Counted from the stretch's first letter, positions 16,650 through 28,978 are shown. The stretch: 32,000 nt of DNA from Candidatus Electrothrix yaqonensis (GCA_047651235.1 CP178758.1:810001-842000); one strand, 5' to 3'. Numbers and translations are program-made. Notes: generated by a model from the sequence alone, not told the origin.

Positions 16650-17291
16650 GTGAGCGAAGAACATATAATTGAAGAAGAAAAACTGGATGATGAGCAGCAG
16701 AACGGGGAGAGTGCGGAGCAGGTTTCCCCGGAGGCTTCAGGAGAGGCAGGAACAGCCGAAGAGGCTGCTGCGGAAAACGGAGCGGAAGAAGAGCAGGGGC
16801 CGGACATCAAGGCCCTGCAGCAGGAGCTTGAGGAGACCCGGAACAAGATGCTGCGGATTGCCGCTGATGCGGAGAACTTCAAAAAACGGATGGAGCGGGA
16901 AAAGGAGAAGCTGGTCAAATATGCCGGTGAAAACATTCTGCGTGAGCTGCTGGTCACCGTGGACAATCTGGACCGTGCTCTGGAGCAGGGCGGTGCGGAA
17001 GGCGGTGACCCGGAGCAGAAACTGGAAGCCCTGTTGTCCGGAGTGGAGCTGACCAGAAAGGGACTGCACACCATGCTGGAGCGCTTTGACGTCAGTCCGC
17101 TTGACTCTGCGGGCAAGGCATTTAATCCGGATGAAATGGATGCCCTGACTATGGAAGCCAGCGACGAGATCCCGGTCAATCATGTGGTAACCGAGTTCGC
17201 CAAAGGGTATGTATTCAAGGACAGGGTGCTGCGTCATGCCCAGGTGGTGGTATCCAGCGGCCCGGGTAAAGAGGAAGCACAGGCAGAATAA
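16650..17291 (+). CDS. grpE: Nucleotide exchange factor GrpE
   Basis: 213 aa. GTG start preceded by GGAGA. Acidic N-terminus, 'RIAADAENFKKRMEREKE' and C-terminal 'GYVFKDRVLRHAQVVV'. Confidence 0.95.
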   Translation: MSEEHIIEEEKLDDEQQNGESAEQVSPEASGEAGTAEEAAAENGAEEEQGPDIKALQQELEETRNKMLRIAADAENFKKRMEREKEKLVKYAGENILRELLVTVDNLDRALEQGGAEGGDPEQKLEALLSGVELTRKGLHTMLERFDVSPLDSAGKAFNPDEMDALTMEASDEIPVNHVVTEFAKGYVFKDRVLRHAQVVVSSGPGKEEAQAE

Positions 17292-17425
17292 TCCTGTTGA
17301 GGGAATAACTTCCTTGACATTTTTTTTTTGATGCACATTGTAAAGAAAGAACGAACAATACCGGCTGCAGACGCGGCGGCCTGCAGGTTGGTTAGACGAA
17401 TATACTGAACCAAGGAGAATAAGTA

Positions 17426-19351
17426 ATGGGCAAAATAATAGGTATCGATCTCGGCACCACCAATTCTTGTGTGGCCATCATGGACGGTGGTGATCCCAAG
17501 GTCATTGAAAACAGCGAAGGCAACCGGACAACGCCGTCCATTGTCGCCTTTTCCGACAGCGGGGAGCGCCTGGTCGGGCAGGTGGCCAAACGTCAGGCCG
17601 TAACCAATCCCACCAAGACGCTGTTCGCCATCAAGCGACTGATCGGGCGGAAGTTCACTGATCCTGAGGTCGAAAAATCCATTGAACTCAGCCCGTTTAA
17701 AATAGTGAAAGGCCCGAACGGTGACGCAGTGGTTGAGGTGGACGGCAAAACCTATTCTGCTGCCGAGATCTCCGCTATGACCTTGGGCAAGATGAAAAAG
17801 ACTGCTGAAGAGTACCTAGGGGAAAGCATCACTGAGGCTGTGGTCACGGTACCGGCCTATTTTAATGATGCCCAGCGCCAAGCCACCAAGGACGCCGGTA
17901 AGATTGCCGGACTGAACGTGCAGCGCATCATCAACGAGCCTACGGCGGCTTCTTTGGCCTACGGGCTGGACAAGAAGGGTGAAGAAAAGATCGCGGTGTT
18001 CGACTTGGGCGGCGGTACCTTTGACGTCTCCATTCTGGAGATCGGCGACGGCGTGTTTGAGGTCAAGTCTACCAACGGCGACACCTTTCTGGGTGGCGAA
18101 GATTTTGATATGCGCATCGTCAACTGGCTGGCTGATGAATTCAAGCGGGATCAGGGCGTGGATCTGCGCAACGATAAAATGGCCCTGCAGCGCCTCAAGG
18201 AAGAGGCGGAAAAGGCCAAGAAGGAGCTCTCCTCCTCTATGGAGACAGACATCAACCTTCCCTTTATCACGGCGGATGCCACCGGTCCCAAGCATCTGAA
18301 CATCAAGCTGTCCAGAGCCAAACTGGAAGCTCTGGTCGCGGATCTGATCGACCGCTGCGCAGGCCCCTGCCAGACCGCACTCAAGGATGCCGGACTGGGT
18401 GCTTCAGACATTGACGAGGTCATTCTGGTGGGCGGTATGACCAGGATGCCCAAGGTGCAGGAAAAAGTAAAACAGATCTTCGGCAAAGATCCGCACAAAG
18501 GTGTCAATCCGGACGAGGTGGTGGCCATCGGTGCGGCCATCCAGGGTGGTGTGCTCAAGGGCGATGTAAAAGATGTGCTGCTGCTGGATGTTACCCCTCT
18601 GTCTCTGGGTATTGAAACCTTGGGCGGAGTCATGACCAAGCTGATCGAGAAGAACACCACGGTGCCGACCAAGAAGAGTCAGGTTTTCTCCACTGCAGCG
18701 GATAACCAGCCAGCCGTGTCCATCCATGTGCTTCAGGGTGAGCGGGAGATGGCAGGGGACAACAAGACCATCGGTCGTTTTGATCTGGCCGATATTCCGC
18801 CTGCACCGCGCGGCGTACCGCAGATCGAAGTCACTTTTGACCTGGACGCCAACGGCATCCTCCATGTCTCTGCCAAGGATATGAGCACGGGCAAGGAACA
18901 GTCCATCCGCATCACCGCCTCTTCCGGCCTGAGCGAGGAAGAGATTGAACGGATGCAGAAGGATGCGGAACTGCACGCAGACGAAGACAAGAAGCGTAAA
19001 GAGCTGGTTGAAGCCAGGAATAATGCCGACTCTATGGTCCATATGACCGAAAAGAGCCTGAGCGATCTGGGCGACAAAGTCGATGCCGAGACCAAGGCCA
19101 ATGTGGAGCGGGAAATCGAAAATGTGAAAAAGGTCAAAGACGGGGATGACCTTGAAGCCATTAAGCAGGCCACGGAAGCCCTGACCCAGGCTTCCCATAA
19201 GCTGGCCGAGCTCATGTATGCTCAGGCTTCACAGAATCAGGGCGGCGACGCAGGTGCGGCAGGCGGAACTGCAGGTTCCGGTGATGCCGGCAAGGCGTCA
19301 AGCAACGATGATGACGATGTTGTGGATGCGGATTTTGAGGAAGTGAAGTAG
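17426..19351 (+). CDS. dnaK: Molecular chaperone DnaK (HSP70)
   Basis: 641 aa with '[12 protein letters not shown]' and 'DLGGGTFD' signatures. AAGGAG RBS. Confidence 0.98.
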
Positions 19352-25317: not shown

Positions 25318-25670
25318 TTCTTCTCCGGCATGACATTTCCCCTGTCCGAAAAATTAATCTTTTATCTCACCAAGTTAATCTGAAAAAAGCGTCTGCGATA
25401 ACCTGCCGGCAGTAAAAGAAGTTCCGACAACGCAGTCTACTCTATCAGAAAACCTGTTTCGTGCAAGCCGGTTTTTCGATATCCTCCTCCTGAGCCAGGA
25501 AGAAGTACAGAAGGGTTGCGGTGGCAATAGCATCAGATTCGATTTTATATCTGATTGGGCCGTCTCACTGATAAGTCAACTTCAATCCCGCGCTGATGGG
25601 AAGTCTGAGGCTGCATCAACGGATTTGAGCCACTACCGAAAAATTGGTCTGATGATCTTGAAGATAGGGG

Positions 25671-25692
25671 AAAAGCTCCAGACAGTCTGGAG
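25671..25692 (-). terminator. Terminator closing the minus-strand module array
   Basis: Read on the minus strand: CTCCAGA-CTG-TCTGGAG (7-bp stem), then C and TTTT. Confidence 0.55.
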
Positions 25693-25759
25693 AGAAATGC
25701 CTGTTTTTTTGACGGGTGCAGCTTTTGTAGCTTTTGCCGGAGTATTTTTCTTTGGTGCG

Positions 25760-25877
25760 TCAACGGGCGCGGAGAAATATTCCCGCTGCAAGGGCCGCAT
25801 CAACTATCAGTACTGCAGATTCTTTTTCAGGGTTTCTACAGCCCCGCAACCGCAGAAGAATACGGACGGGGCTTCAT
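25760..25877 (-). pseudogene. Decayed copy of the small TM-protein gene (unit 0)
   Basis: The minus strand reads ATG AAG CCC.. then a stop after 13 codons. The homologous C-terminal part ('VLIVDAALAAGIFLRAR*', compare 'SILAVDAALTAEMFLRDL' in unit B) is in another frame, and this copy is about 23 nt shorter than unit B. Confidence 0.4.
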
Positions 25878-26002
25878 ACCTTTGCGGACAACACACTTCA
25901 ACCTGTGCAGTTGTCCCGGCTGATCCGGTTACCTTTTCAGAGCCGGTTTTATAGGCGGTCAGTTCAACCTGAATATGACTGTCTTTATTTGTTATGATTC
26001 AT

Positions 26003-26026
26003 ACGGAGCGATGTATACCGTTCCGT
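26003..26026 (-). repeat. Module hairpin, copy A (ACGGAGCG-N8-CGTTCCGT) next to ATGAATCATAACAAAT
   Basis: Same position and shape as the hairpins at 28274-28296 and 28780-28801. The stem sequence differs but pairing is kept, including one G-U pair. Confidence 0.6.
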
Positions 26027-26113
26027 TCTGCAGCCTGAGCTGAGAAAAGGAGGAGAAAAACTGAACTGGCCCACTCCCCTCCCCCGAAATATGGCAAGTC
26101 TTGTCAAGTCATG

Positions 26114-26437
26114 TCAGTCTATTACCCTGCGGGCACTTGCCTTTACGCCCAAAAGGGCGCAGAGAAATATTTCCCCTGCCAGCGGCAACATATCTCCGTT
26201 GCCGGAAAGCAAACCAACTGCCAATAACATCAAGTAAAAGAGGGAGAAATCAGTCAACAAACTGAAGAATATCCGGATATTGTCGCGGATTGGCGGAGTG
26301 TTTTTTTCTTTTCCTGCGCCTTTCTCTTTTTGCTTGAAACCAGTACCCGGTACTGCGCGCAAGCCCGAAGGTGACGGCAGTCCGAGCGACCTGTCGAGAC
26401 GACTGGAGAGCAGACTTGAATAGAATAAGGATCTCAT
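26114..26437 (-). CDS. Small membrane protein, family copy A (107 aa)
   Basis: GGGAGG lies 6 nt upstream of the ATG. 'MRSLF...LSSR' and the core 'RDNIRIFFSLLTDFSLFY' are homologous to copy B. Codon differences in the core include several synonymous changes (ttc/ttt, ttg/ctg, ttg/tta, tac/tat). Confidence 0.55.
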   Translation of the reverse strand: MRSLFYSSLLSSRLDRSLGLPSPSGLRAVPGTGFKQKEKGAGKEKNTPPIRDNIRIFFSLLTDFSLFYLMLLAVGLLSGNGDMLPLAGEIFLCALLGVKASARRVID

Positions 26438-26600
26438 AACATACCTCCCGGTATAACGGTAATAGGTAGAAGCAGGGAACCCGGCTGTCTCCTCCCTGGA
26501 GACCCGTGGCTTTCCGACACCGCCTTGCGACGGCTGTGGCTTTATCAGCTTCCGGTTTCCGCCGGAAAGCAGAGCACCCGCTTAGTTTAATTCAACTAAG
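26438..26600 (-). promoter_or_regulatory. Conserved structured 5' leader, copy A (riboswitch-like; GEMM-I-like features)
   Basis: Minus-sense: CUUAGU..ACUAAG hairpin, CUUUCCGG..CCGGAAG hairpin, AUAAAGCCAC, ACAGCCGUC-GCAA-GGCGGUGU hairpin, GGAAAGCCAC, CGG-GUCUCC-AGGGA-GGAGAC-AG-CCG, then the SD and ATG. Confidence 0.6.
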
Positions 26601-26664
26601 GATTGCCGATTGTTATAATGATAGACAGTTGAAGAAATCCCGACCGACATAAGTCACTCTGTCC

Positions 26665-27927
26665 CTATTTTATTCGGCGATTATAATCTATAATTAATTC
26701 ATACGTATCATCTGTCCGTGCCTTATCGCCAAATAACAGGTCTGAGAGATAATCCGTATCAATATCTTCATTATCGCTGACATTATCCAGAATTCTTTTG
26801 ACAAGCATTCTGTAAATTCTTTCTTCAAGATCACTGCAGGTCTTCACATCATCCACTAACGAAACCGATTTGTTCTCAGAATTTACCTTAAAGCAAAATG
26901 CTTTATATATCAGGTCTTTAATCTTCGCAGCATCAGTATCCTGAATATCCGGGATTGTTTTTTTAAGCCGTATCAGGAGGTTATTCCTATAATCTCTATA
27001 CGATGAAAATATTTTTTCTTCATGGAAGATATCAAAAGTATCTTTTATCCCCTGCTTCATAATTTCCGGCCTGACGAGTCGTATTTTCTGCTTCTTAAGA
27101 ATTATTTCATACAGATGCGGAACCTGCACAGAAGGAGTCTCAACATGTTTAGAAGAACTTCTGAGTGATACAGTTACATCTTTGTCAGATTCTTTAATTA
27201 CGATACTCTCCTGACATTGATTTAAAAATTCTGTAAAATTACTACAACCGTAATTATTTTCATCAAATGACGGATCAAGCCGCAGCATAACCGGTTTTAT
27301 GCTGACGCGAGGTGCGCTGCTGCTGCCTGATTCGGAAAAAATTATCTTCAATGCCTTTATAAGCAGATTCTTTGCATCATCAAAATCTTCTTGACTGCCA
27401 TTTTCTGATATATCGTCCTCCTTTATAAGGGCGGAATAAAATTTAAATTTATTACATGCTTTGATCCAGAACTGATTCGTCGTTTCCTGAACTCCAATTC
27501 CAATTATTCTTTTTCCCCTCTGTCGTACTTTTTGAGCAATTGATATATAATCACTATCTCCGCTGATCAACACAATAGTGTCTAAATGCGGTTGCTGAAT
27601 GCAGTCATCTAAAATATCAATGGCTATTCTTATATCAGAACCATTCTTTCCGTATTTCCCGCAATGATACATTTGAATCAGATCAATAGAATAATTCTGC
27701 AATTCAAAACTGTAAGCATGAAAAAAACTCCAGTTTGCATAAGATTTATTAATATTCACTTCTCCAATACTTGATATATAATCCATTATTTTTCTGATAT
27801 CAATAAAAGCAGGTTGCTTTGAATACATGTTGTCCTTATACCAGGACTCTCCCATTTTTAATGAGGAGAGAGATATATGGATATTTTCAAAGTCCCAATA
27901 TACAGCTACATTACACTCTGTGTTCAT
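26665..27927 (-). CDS. NYN-domain (PIN-like) ribonuclease with an OST-HTH/LOTUS domain and an unassigned C-terminal region
   Basis: 420 aa. NYN acidic motifs 'VAVYWDFENI', 'KNGSDIRIAIDILDD' and 'LISGDSDY'. LOTUS-like 'RLDPSFDENNYGCSNFTEFLNQC'. The gene is visibly AT-rich compared with its flanks. Confidence 0.85.
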   Translation of the reverse strand: MNTECNVAVYWDFENIHISLSSLKMGESWYKDNMYSKQPAFIDIRKIMDYISSIGEVNINKSYANWSFFHAYSFELQNYSIDLIQMYHCGKYGKNGSDIRIAIDILDDCIQQPHLDTIVLISGDSDYISIAQKVRQRGKRIIGIGVQETTNQFWIKACNKFKFYSALIKEDDISENGSQEDFDDAKNLLIKALKIIFSESGSSSAPRVSIKPVMLRLDPSFDENNYGCSNFTEFLNQCQESIVIKESDKDVTVSLRSSSKHVETPSVQVPHLYEIILKKQKIRLVRPEIMKQGIKDTFDIFHEEKIFSSYRDYRNNLLIRLKKTIPDIQDTDAAKIKDLIYKAFCFKVNSENKSVSLVDDVKTCSDLEERIYRMLVKRILDNVSDNEDIDTDYLSDLLFGDKARTDDTYELIIDYNRRIK

Positions 27928-28022
27928 TGATTACGCTCCGTTTCCTTTAGCTAACGACCCAACATGCAACGTTTTAGTGCACCTTGATCAATCTATAGGA
28001 AATCCATAGGAAATGCTACCCG

Positions 28023-28054
28023 AAAAAAAGATACGGCAGCCCATCCGGCTACCG
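28023..28054 (-). terminator. Intrinsic terminator forming the 3' end of the NYN-copy leader (candidate expression platform)
   Basis: Minus-sense: CGGUAGC-CGGAUGG-GCUGCCG (7-bp stem with one U-G pair), then UAUC and UUUUUUU. It lies 95 nt upstream of the NYN ATG. Confidence 0.65.
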
Positions 28055-28145
28055 GTGGCTTTTTGACACCGCCTCGCGACGGCTGTGGCTTTATCAGCTT
28101 CCGGTTTCCTCCGGAAAGCAGAGCGCCCGCTTAGTTTAAACTAAG
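28023..28145 (-). promoter_or_regulatory. Conserved structured 5' leader, copy N (upstream of the NYN gene)
   Basis: Its ~80-nt core differs from copy A at about 6 positions by eye. The GNRA loop is GCGA rather than GCAA. The 3' part is replaced by CCGG-UAG-CCGG plus the terminator. Confidence 0.6.
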
Positions 28146-28147
28146 GA

Positions 28148-28242
28148 ACGGGAATTAAATAACTGCCGCATTTCGTGGAAGCGATGCCCGTCATCATGTG
28201 CATCTCGATCAGGCAAACGTACCAGTTATTAAATCCTCATTC
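28148..28242. repeat. 95-nt insertion between the module motif and leader N, flanked by a 7-nt duplication (CTAAGGA)
   Basis: CTAAGGA at 28141-28147 and 28243-28249. In units A and B the sequences on either side are contiguous. The insert has an imperfect inverted repeat GGAATTAAATAACTG (28151-28165) / CAGTTATTAAATCC (28223-28236). Confidence 0.4.
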
Positions 28243-28273
28243 CTAAGGATTGCTTTATTTGTTATGATTCATG

Positions 28274-28296
28274 CGGAACGATTTGTGGCCGTTCCG
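28274..28296 (-). repeat. Module hairpin, copy N (CGGAACG-N9-CGTTCCG) next to ATGAATCATAACAAAT
   Basis: Perfect 7-bp stem, preceded (minus-sense) by TTTTCTCAGGCTGCGGAA and followed by CATGAATCATAACAAATAAAGCAATCCTTAG. Confidence 0.6.
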
Positions 28297-28388
28297 ATTC
28301 CGCAGCCTGAGAAAACGCGGCAAAGAACTGAACCGGTTCAGCCCTCTTTTCCCGAAACCCGTTCAGTTCTTCAAATCATGTCAAAGGA

Positions 28389-28598
28389 TTATCCCGCTGC
28401 CGGAGCAGTCTCCTCTGTGCCGGAAAGATCGCGGAGAAACATTTCCGCAGTCAGGGCCGCATCAACGGCTAAGATGGAATAAAAGAGGACAACATCAGGT
28501 AACAGGCCGAAAAACAGTTGGATATTACCGCGAACTGCCGGGCTGTTTGACTTGCTGAAACGGCTGGAGAGAAAGTTTGGATGGAATAAGGATTTCAT
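28389..28598 (-). CDS. Small membrane protein, family copy B (69 aa)
   Basis: ATG at 28598 with GGGAGG 6 nt upstream, the same arrangement as copy A: 'MKSLFHPNFLSSRF...VRGNIQLFFGLLPDVVLFYSILAV'. The 96-aa ORF in the track is a 5' extension into the leader. Confidence 0.55.
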   Translation of the reverse strand: MKSLFHPNFLSSRFSKSNSPAVRGNIQLFFGLLPDVVLFYSILAVDAALTAEMFLRDLSGTEETAPAAG

Positions 28599-28755
28599 AA
28601 CATACCTCCCGGTATAATAACGGTTAGAAGCAGGGAGCCCGGCTGTCTCTTCCTTTGGAGACCCGTGGTTTTCCGACACCGCCTTGCGACGGCTGTGGCT
28701 TTATCAGCTTTCCGTTTCCGTCCGGAAAGCAAGGCGCCCGCTTAGGTTAACTAAG
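28599..28755 (-). promoter_or_regulatory. Conserved structured 5' leader, copy B
   Basis: Collinear with copy A down to the SD. The second hairpin changes to CUUUCCG..CGGAAAG with pairing kept. The second junction is AAAACCAC. Confidence 0.6.
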
Positions 28756-28779
28756 GATTGCCATTTGTTATGATGCATA

Positions 28780-28801
28780 CGGAACGATCTGGGCCGTTCC
28801 G
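28780..28801 (-). repeat. Module hairpin, copy B (CGGAACG-N8-CGTTCCG) next to ATGCATCATAACAAAT
   Basis: Perfect 7-bp stem, followed (minus-sense) by TATGCATCATAACAAATGGCAATCCTTAG, which leads into leader B. Confidence 0.6.
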
Positions 28802-28949
28802 GCTCTGCAGCCGGAGAAAAAGCCGCAGAAAATTGAAGCAGCGTTTTCTTCTTTTTTGACGGGCGATAGAACATCGCCTGCACCCGATAAGAAATGCACA
28901 AAATGCATTCGGGTACGGACAGTCAGTTGCTGCTTCAAATATAAAAATG

Positions 28950-28978
28950 AACTTACCGTTTTTCGACTGCTCTGTCAA
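28950..28978 (-). promoter_or_regulatory. Sigma70-like promoter reading into the module array (TTGACA-N17-TAAGTT)
   Basis: Read on the minus strand: -35 TTGACA (28978-28973) and -10 TAAGTT (28955-28950), in the AT-rich tract upstream of the array. Confidence 0.4.

Follow-up and report, generated by a model that had tools for sequence, protein, structure and literature searches.

A decaying tandem array of predicted class I cyclic di-GMP riboswitches and small-protein genes in Candidatus Electrothrix yaqonensis

Class I cyclic di-GMP (c-di-GMP) riboswitches (Rfam family c-di-GMP-I, RF01051) have as their prototype Vc2 of Vibrio cholerae, after which helices are named here: P1 is the helix that closes the aptamer, P2 the hairpin with the tetraloop and P3 the other hairpin. 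The Vc2 junction nucleotides in contact with the ligand are G20, A47 and C92 (PMC5888326, PMC4744006). Such riboswitches can be numerous in one genome, as in Geobacter sulfurreducens with its 17 GEMM-I copies (PMC8835794). Here we analyse a set of repeated leader–gene modules on the minus strand of a 32,000-nucleotide (nt) stretch of DNA from the cable bacterium Candidatus Electrothrix yaqonensis (GCA_047651235.1, CP178758.1:810001-842000), referred to below as the window and numbered from its first letter. The initial annotation of the window had proposed that a novel leader RNA gates a series of potentially toxic effectors. The region is better described as an array in which a single unit occurs four times in tandem and has undergone birth and death; in this unit a 5′ leader and a class I c-di-GMP riboswitch would precede the gene for a small single-helix protein. 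This identity and architecture of the array we regard as very likely to be correct.

Leaders 1 and 3 both exceed the RF01051 gathering threshold of 35, leader 1 with 52.6 bits (E = 9.8e-8) and leader 3 with 56.3 bits (E = 1.3e-8; coordinates in Table 1), and therefore no new class of RNA has to be invoked. What had been described as a novel leader RNA is, judged by its sequence, a known sensor from a described family, the class I c-di-GMP riboswitch, in both of these copies. Single-sequence minimum free energy folds of the leaders were uninformative, with z-scores of only -1.1 to -2.1, and for this reason comparative analysis was used. In an alignment (A1) of 26 leaders with an adjacent start codon, the aptamer helices are paired in 100%, 100% and 94.7% of cells, and three pairs are changed on both sides. 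G, A and C occupy the positions aligned to Vc2 G20, A47 and C92 in leaders 1 and 3 and in all relatives, as invariant columns; the C92 equivalent was placed in the 3′ joiner by reference to the Vc2 sequence and numbering. For two of the three leaders the suggested gating of downstream genes by a shared RNA sensor is thus upheld; for leader 2 it fails.

Relatives of these riboswitches were sought with an aptamer-derived pattern in one genome per species (185,579 genomes). The scan returned 30 loci (L002-L031, from nine genomes), with 3–7 per genome and all in Candidatus Electrothrix or unclassified Desulfobulbaceae, a narrow distribution that is partly by design, since the pattern was stringent. 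All 30 score above an Rfam gathering threshold of the c-di-GMP-I clan. The riboswitch lies in sense orientation upstream of an open reading frame (ORF) wherever an adjacent ORF was identified. The downstream genes fall into a few groups, encoding small ‘MKSLFH...’ proteins, signal-peptide proteins of 124–329 amino acids (aa) without a Pfam match (families of about 180, 124 and 329 aa) and ORFs of 60–77 aa; a gene for a phosphonate-type periplasmic binding protein is found farther downstream, beyond a long spacer with a possible upstream small ORF. By their sequences, the 30 loci together look like an undescribed c-di-GMP regulon. The literature library searched yielded no paper on riboswitches in cable bacteria, nor any on c-di-GMP riboswitches in Electrothrix.

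Within the window the three minus-strand leader copies first reported were recovered by a repeat finder as a common 89-nt block (26502-26590, 28051-28139 and 28661-28749; ungapped identity 76–100%). A 24-nt 5′ motif, CTAAGCGGGYGCYYTGCTTTCCGG, and the element GGAACG-N6-10-CGYTCCG-YATGMATCATAACAAAT were each observed three times against 0.00 expected. The repeats are therefore genuine and far above chance level, but the modules are not uniform as had been claimed. The hairpin with its ATGMATCATAACAAAT element is found at 28763-28800, 28257-28295 and 25987-26024, that is, in modules 1, 2 and 4; module 3 retains ATCATTATAACAAT alone of the upstream element, while module 4 has the upstream element without a leader or riboswitch. 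Similarly, near-identity over a core of ~80 nt holds for leaders 1 and 3 but not for leader 2, in which only the 5′ ~95 nt are shared and the 3′ half has been replaced. The fourth unit is indeed decayed and leaderless: frame 0 of 25650-25990(-) ends in ...LIVDAALAAGIFLRAR* behind stop codons, a remnant of the conserved C-terminal helix of the small-protein family. The ‘terminator’ said to close the array is a 7-bp hairpin followed by only four T, and was not called by the terminator scan. Tandem Repeats Finder made no call here, the units being too long and too diverged. The ClC and pyrG genes of the window had no match in the riboswitch loci by tblastn, which indicates that this location is not ancestral.

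We propose the following history. Modules 1 and 3 would be intact, each with a canonical c-di-GMP-I aptamer and a translational expression platform before paralogous small-protein genes (69 and 107 aa). Module 2 would be dead, having suffered a 100-nt insertion in its leader, the loss of pocket-adjacent pairs and of most of P3, and truncation of its ORF after four codons. An AT-rich, horizontally acquired NYN/OST-HTH gene would then have taken the place of what remained of module 2 together with the front part of module 3, and module 4 would have lost its riboswitch and kept its ORF as a pseudogene.

How the intact riboswitches might act on translation was approached by comparing two nested, mutually exclusive structures over alignment A1. 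In fold X the P0 hairpin (GCUUUCYGG / CCRGAAAGY) is paired in 93.2% of cells, and an upstream strand, AAGCGGGU, pairs with the 3′ tail RCCUGCUU in 87.7%; this up:tail helix contains one C-G to U-A double change, fully compensatory. In fold Y the P0 3′ arm plus UG pairs with the tail CUGCUUUU (92.3% of cells) and the P0 5′ arm pairs with YCRGGAGG, the Shine-Dalgarno region (93.6%); one position of the latter helix, at alignment columns 73/235, is represented by 15 U-A and 7 C-G pairs. Controls in which the partner strand was slid brought pairing down to 37–52% for both folds. The YCR extension ahead of GGAGG is otherwise rare: among 22 other genes from these genomes, only 2 carry it. On average the two folds are isoenergetic (mean difference 0.2 kcal/mol, with the 26 leaders split 13/13), which is what a switch needs.

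Three observations favour fold Y as the ligand-bound state. The P1 of Rfam model RF03167 corresponds to the a′:tail register, the joiners having their canonical lengths of 6 nt and 2 nt; the invariant C92 equivalent (column 195) is base-paired in fold X; and when P1 and the aptamer alone are enforced, the P0 5′ arm pairs with the Shine-Dalgarno sequence at a mean probability of 0.88. The probability that the Shine-Dalgarno sequence is unpaired is then 0.05, as compared with 0.32 when P0 is enforced, a shift seen in 24 of the 26 sequences. We suggest that, without c-di-GMP, the P0 hairpin 5′ of the aptamer sequesters the pyrimidine strand GCUUUCCGG, while the aptamer 3′ tail, including the C92 equivalent, pairs with AAGCGGG, leaving the Shine-Dalgarno sequence more accessible. 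With c-di-GMP, the canonical P1 would form between the P0 3′ arm, GAAAGCUG, and the tail CUGCUUC; its formation would open P0, and the released 5′ arm would pair with CCGGGAGG, the Shine-Dalgarno region, so that high c-di-GMP would turn translation of the small proteins OFF. The NYN gene would lie outside riboswitch control. In such a model, changing the P0 5′ arm from GCUUUCCG to GCAAACCG would give constitutive ON expression. We regard the presence of a 5′ anti-Shine-Dalgarno switch as somewhat probable, and give the OFF direction about an even chance.

The same riboswitches could work with opposite polarity, c-di-GMP stabilising the fold in which P0 coexists with up:tail, the latter acting as P1, so that the Shine-Dalgarno sequence is freed and translation turned ON. 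The extent of up:tail pairing and its compensatory change speak for this arrangement, the isoenergetic folds mean that energy alone does not decide, and both polarities are known among c-di-GMP-I riboswitches (PMC9262584). Nevertheless, it would bury the invariant C92 equivalent in a helix, leave no 3′ joiner and insert a hairpin into the 5′ joiner where the Rfam consensus has none, and it departs from Rfam's own P1 register. We consider the ON direction doubtful, though it is the strongest of the alternatives.

Several points weigh against the array-and-OFF-switch explanation. Any GGAGG will find a trivial complement in a pyrimidine-rich strand; the U-A/C-G covariation essentially splits two clades, and thus represents few independent events; and even with P0 enforced the Shine-Dalgarno sequence is, on average, unpaired only to the extent given above. 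The argument for the direction of switching depends on nearest-neighbour energies, on the P1 assignment and on the Vc2 sequence and numbering adopted. A recognisable conserved promoter is present at module 1 only and is lacking from modules 2–4, and two terminator-like hairpins stand between modules, which leaves transcription of modules 2–4 and of the NYN gene unexplained. Finally, the family includes short or frameshifted members (33–46 aa) in other genomes, and some of these copies may be leader peptides or pseudogenes. Taking these points into account, we hold the explanation as a whole, comprising the array, its riboswitches and the OFF switch, to be probable on sequence grounds. Leader 3 may act on a co-transcript running from the NYN gene to the 107-aa gene, as a translational riboswitch can work within a polycistronic RNA. 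As a separate observation, the start regions at 28599-28612 and 26438-26451(-) read GGAGGUAUGUUAUGA, in which a two-codon mini-ORF, AUG UUA UGA, overlaps the real start codon; many, not all, related leaders share this overlap.

Leader 2 was absent from the Rfam matches at gathering thresholds, RF01051 included. Under permissive settings it reached 28.4 bits with the variant model c-di-GMP-I-GGC, for which the threshold is 59, with broken pairs flagged and a second hairpin of 12 nt. In a three-way alignment of the leaders a GG has become AA in leader 2, destroying two pairs beside the ligand pocket, and P3 has suffered an internal deletion that includes the bulged AG. The shortened P3 and its U-rich tail have a terminator-like shape, 8 bp (6 GC) followed by TATCTTTTTTT, in the terminator scan. 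The leader ends in a decayed Shine-Dalgarno sequence, CGGGTAGC, and a 4-codon ORF remnant. The 100-nt insert has ends like those of a miniature inverted-repeat transposable element (MITE), but neither the window nor loci L001-L031 yielded another copy, and its assignment as a MITE was set aside.

The AT-rich DNA begins right behind the terminator-like hairpin and T-run of leader 2 and stops ~40 nt ahead of leader 3, removing the hairpin element of module 3. Its 420-aa ORF matches PF01936 (NYN; 97.8 against a threshold of 24.2, 1e-27) and, borderline, PF12872 (OST-HTH; 24.5 against 23.8), and its GC content is 0.29–0.39 as compared with about 0.5, so that the AT-rich NYN/LOTUS gene first described is confirmed as such. 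The protein has a match of 100% identity in Electrothrix sp. YB6, and no other named Electrothrix genome was among the 120 NYN matches listed; an exact look-up of NYN retrieved just one 1.5-kb contig, which is identical to the window and breaks off at the repeats. The neighbours of its best homologs (57–69% identity) encode cytochrome c, a PIN protein, HSDR_N and McrB/EVE, and no c-di-GMP riboswitch was found at these loci. The closest solved chain is 2qip_A (function unknown; E = 8e-4), while similarity to the PADLOC NYN models is weak and partial (E about 1e-6). By homology only, the protein would be a ribonuclease. Because its composition is foreign, a degenerate half-aptamer with a terminator-like end lies upstream, and its homologs lack the riboswitch, the most plausible reading is that the gene was acquired horizontally and inserted into a module that was dying, and not, as proposed initially, that it is a leader-gated cargo.

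Leader 2 might instead be a functional variant, in which the short P3 and U-tract terminator place the NYN gene under ligand-dependent termination. Hairpin 1, P0 and P2 are intact, and the hairpin over the former P3 is a strong one, with its 8 bp (6 GC) and T-run. Such a role is, however, improbable in view of the sub-threshold Rfam score, the conversion of the pocket-adjacent GG to AA and the loss of the bulged AG and the P3 helix; the leader insertion, the remnant Shine-Dalgarno sequence and the 4-codon ORF are signs of decay, and the NYN homologs are without riboswitches.

A similarly small probability attaches to the idea that the aptamers sense 3′,3′-cyclic GMP-AMP (cGAMP) rather than c-di-GMP, like most Geobacter GEMM-I copies. 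Electrothrix belongs to the broad Desulfobacterota, within the old ‘Deltaproteobacteria’ grouping shared with Geobacter, and 12 of the 17 G. sulfurreducens GEMM-I riboswitches bind cGAMP (PMC8835794). In all 33 copies, however, the position aligned to G20 is G and not the A of GEMM-Ib, and G20A is the change that confers cGAMP binding (PMC7288161). General resemblance accounts for the near-threshold matches to the ‘UAU’ and ‘GGC’ variant models, and where the former has its signature U the present aptamers have G. The G at position 20 thus argues for c-di-GMP as the ligand.

The proteins encoded by modules 1 and 3 belong to one family, the 69-aa and 107-aa members being 43% identical. From their sequences, the two genes are paralogs that arose by tandem duplication of the whole module; cargos have not been exchanged beneath a constant leader, as was first supposed. 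The family has 26 detectable members, all in Electrothrix or metagenomes, and only 9 representatives among 1.84 billion cluster representatives; an exact-sequence look-up of the 107-aa protein gave no record. Members start with MKSLFHS, continue through a variable Ser/Thr/Lys-rich linker and end in a strongly conserved C-terminal FSPGLLxDYTLFSYILAVDAGLTAExFLRDRL. AlphaFold2 predicts a single long helix at residues 20–60 of the 69-aa protein, with a mean predicted local distance difference test (pLDDT) of 80–93 per 10-residue block over residues 31–60. Maxima of 19-residue hydropathy (KD19) lie between 1.5 and 2.1 in the family and at 1.87 in the 69-aa protein, values compatible with a single membrane helix that carries conserved acidic residues.

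No Pfam, NCBIfam or PADLOC match was obtained for the small proteins, and the window contains no partner ORF for a toxin–antitoxin pairing, so that the toxin–antitoxin or abortive-infection logic of the initial annotation finds no footing. Wherever upstream sequence exists, a riboswitch precedes the family gene (L011, L031, L036, L037, L039, L040 and L041). In E. laxa, GW3-4 and Rat3 a single family gene is located just downstream of a CxxCxxCC-domain gene, and, to judge by this context, the family gene seems to be part of the lineage core and not of a mobile defence cassette. A new class of RNA sensor in an RNA-gated toxic-effector system would account for the repeated leaders ahead of small hydrophobic proteins, and genes of mobile or defence type do occur near several loci (NYN here, an AAA_15/OLD-like ATPase in L039, a transposase in L036). 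It is nonetheless very improbable: its RNA-class part is already refuted by leaders that pass the Rfam threshold of a described class, there is no antitoxin-like partner, the small proteins match nothing in the three collections named above, and the family gene sits behind the CxxCxxCC-domain gene in E. laxa as well as in both complete genomes that were checked.

Further loci are of note for the family. In L010 (6392-7998), L016 (7059-8000) and L030 (1049-3084) the riboswitch is followed by an ORF of 33–46 aa that corresponds to the N-terminus only (frameshifted in L030) and may be a leader peptide or a pseudogene; behind it lie two conserved genes of ~305 and ~267 aa with a weak PilJ-like match. 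In Electrothrix sp. GM3_4 (L039, 480-1898(+)) three tandem c-di-GMP-I riboswitches each stand before a family ORF, of which one is decayed and two are intact (95 and 91 aa). A gene for an SMC_N/AAA_15/AAA_23 (OLD-like) ATPase follows, an arrangement that parallels the window array with its inserted NYN gene. The decayed module in the L039 array shows that tandem duplication followed by decay recurs. That the repeats are only a mobile family, such as remnants of MITEs, repetitive extragenic palindromes or insertion sequences with no regulatory role, is hardly credible: several copies do occur per genome, and one contains an insert that has inverted ends and a duplicated CCTTAG, but the leaders themselves have neither terminal inverted repeats nor target duplications, lie in sense orientation upstream of an ORF wherever an adjacent one was identified (26 aligned leaders, and five farther upstream of a substrate-binding-protein gene), keep about 100–116 nt between aptamer start and ATG in the 26 aligned leaders, and maintain their helices across species.

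The sigma70-like promoter that had been noted at the head of the array is present, and five Electrothrix species keep its TTGACA, the 17-nt spacing, a TAnnnT box that is mostly preceded by TG, and an A/T tract upstream. From promoter to riboswitch there are ~190 nt, and both hairpins in this interval were recovered by RNAalifold from the five species, with a few compensatory changes; they may be either RNA hairpins or a palindromic protein site. Promoter and leader are conserved together (window 28757-28978(-); L036 4500-4850; L037 4500-4850; L011 540-890; L031 5220-5570); among the parts of the leader are a GYSGC..GCSRC hairpin around a CTTTTTCTC loop, a hairpin CAGAACGG..CCGTTCTG and the motif TATGCATCATAACAA, and it matched no Rfam family. 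Inspection by eye gave no convincing sigma54, Bacteroidetes-type or sigma70 promoter within ATGMATCATAACAAAT; the motif is probably transcribed, because in L009 it lies downstream of a good sigma70 promoter. The hairpin behind the 69-aa gene is near-perfect (11–16 bp) and probably a terminator; it also gave sub-threshold matches to ‘Plastid-psbJ-4’ on both strands (~30 bits against 55), which are spurious given the symmetry of the hairpin.

Table 1. Elements of the array in the order of the window numbering, with predicted roles where assigned
Feature	Position	Strand	Remarks
Module 4, decayed	25671-26025	-	Hairpin plus ATGAATCATAACAAAT at 25987-26025; no riboswitch; pseudogene 25760-25804; weak closing hairpin 25671-25692; repeat family D2
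107-aa small protein, ACL93V_03820 (P0004), with Shine-Dalgarno region	26114-26451	-	Paralog of the 69-aa protein; Shine-Dalgarno region CCGGGAGGT at 26443-26451
Riboswitch aptamer 3	26472-26550	-	RF01051; Vc2 G20, A47 and C92 equivalents at 26540, 26513 and 26476
Module 3 5′ region	26548-26622	-	Remnant ATCATTATAACAAT 26609-26622; hairpin 1 26581-26601; up strand 26577-26583; P0 26548-26570
NYN + OST-HTH/LOTUS protein, 420 aa	26665-27927	-	LabA/DUF88 family; AT-rich, putatively inserted gene; from Pfam, composition and homologs
Relic riboswitch 2	28023-28146	-	5′ extension and P2 kept, 28055-28146; terminator-like hairpin 28034-28054; T-run 28023-28033
Insertion of ~100 nt in leader 2	28151-28250	-	CCTTAG direct repeats as flanks; inverted ends of 14-15 nt, GGATTTAATAACTG ... 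CAGTTATTTAATTCC; MITE-like
Module 2 upstream hairpin	28257-28296	-	CGGAACG-N9-CGTTCCG plus ATGAATCATAACAAAT; element search
Long hairpin behind the 69-aa gene	28323-28371	-	Likely terminator, weak U tract; terminator scan
69-aa small protein, ACL93V_03830 (P0021, 100% identity)	28389-28598	-	One predicted long helix
Shine-Dalgarno region of the 69-aa gene	28604-28612	-	CCGGGAGGT; complementary to P0 5′ arm
Riboswitch aptamer 1	28630-28709	-	RF01051; Vc2 G20, A47 and C92 equivalents at 28699, 28672 and 28634
5′ extension of riboswitch 1	28707-28756	-	Hairpin CCTTAG..CTAAG 28741-28756; ‘up’ strand AAGCGGG 28737-28743; P0 hairpin GCTTTCCG-loop-CGGAAAGC 28707-28730
Module 1 upstream elements	28763-28826	-	Hairpin GCGGC..GCTGC 28807-28826; hairpin CGGAACG-N8-CGTTCCG 28780-28801; motif ATGCATCATAACAAAT 28763-28778
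Promoter of module 1, sigma70-type	28950-28978	-	TTGACA-17-TAAGTT; conserved in 5 Electrothrix species

Other features were noted at some distance from the riboswitches. Cobalamin riboswitches in E. gigas and E. laxa (L008 2906-3090(-), 129 bits; L023 1395-1580(-), 121 bits) lie a few kb from c-di-GMP riboswitch loci. Elsewhere in the window, 16821-19350 is 77–81% identical to L007 2823-5370, which in Electrothrix sp. MFD10219 is ~700 nt from a riboswitch-controlled secreted-protein gene; at the place in the window that corresponds to the L007 riboswitch, no Rfam riboswitch was found.

For genome scanning, the lesson of this locus is that a striking ‘novel leader’ can be a textbook riboswitch, which one Rfam search suffices to reveal. 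The array also offers a first concrete point of entry to the c-di-GMP signalling of uncultured cable bacteria, in the form of a gene list that consists almost entirely of orphan, exported or small membrane proteins. It illustrates how riboswitch modules duplicate, decay and are overwritten by incoming genes, and, as an expression platform, the proposed 5′ anti-Shine-Dalgarno hairpin would represent a variant design that is open to testing. A wider and distinctly speculative possibility, which we put forward tentatively, is that cable bacteria possess a lineage-specific subclass of c-di-GMP-I riboswitch, with an anti-Shine-Dalgarno sequence held in a 5′ hairpin and released by four-strand exchange. 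This subclass would define an undescribed regulon of orphan exported proteins, among them expanding and decaying tandem sets of acidic single-helix membrane proteins that may be c-di-GMP-gated membrane effectors in the filament.

Among known systems, the type I toxin–antitoxin toxins Hok and TisB resemble the present modules in logic only: they too are small hydrophobic proteins with a single helix, and the structure of the mRNA at the Shine-Dalgarno sequence governs their translation. The window, in contrast, has no antisense RNA gene or antitoxin, control would be of the metabolite-riboswitch type, and the helix carries conserved acidic residues. The NYN/OST-HTH protein shares with LabA/DUF88 proteins of the OST-HTH/LOTUS type (PF01936 + PF12872) the same two-domain build and the DxxN and SGDSD-type acidic motifs. 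With >150 full-length homologs, it is an unexceptional representative of a widespread family that lacks functional characterisation, although its 420-aa subfamily is only weakly like the PADLOC NYN models and elsewhere occupies riboswitch-free loci.

The cGAMP-responsive GEMM-I/GEMM-Ib regulons of Geobacter are closer, with many copies, electroactive hosts from the former Deltaproteobacteria and poorly characterised, often exported cargos. The Electrothrix riboswitches differ from them in the G at position 20, which predicts specificity for c-di-GMP, in cargo families that are Electrothrix-specific and in the occurrence of complete modules as tandem arrays. To c-di-GMP-I and its prototype Vc2 they conform in the three-helix junction, the GNRA-type tetraloop (GCAA) on the first hairpin, the G20, A47 and C92 equivalents and the position in the 5′ untranslated region. 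They depart from the c-di-GMP-I consensus in a flipped pair beside G20 (C-G instead of G-C), in a P0 hairpin that abuts the 5′ side of the aptamer, in a further upstream strand that can pair with the 3′ tail and in the proposed location of the anti-Shine-Dalgarno strand 5′ of the aptamer. In conclusion, the system is ordinary in kind and its host organism is what makes it interesting; modest claims to novelty may be made for the Electrothrix-specific 5′ extension with its strand-exchange platform, for the lineage-restricted small-protein family with its tandem turnover and for the outline of a c-di-GMP regulon.

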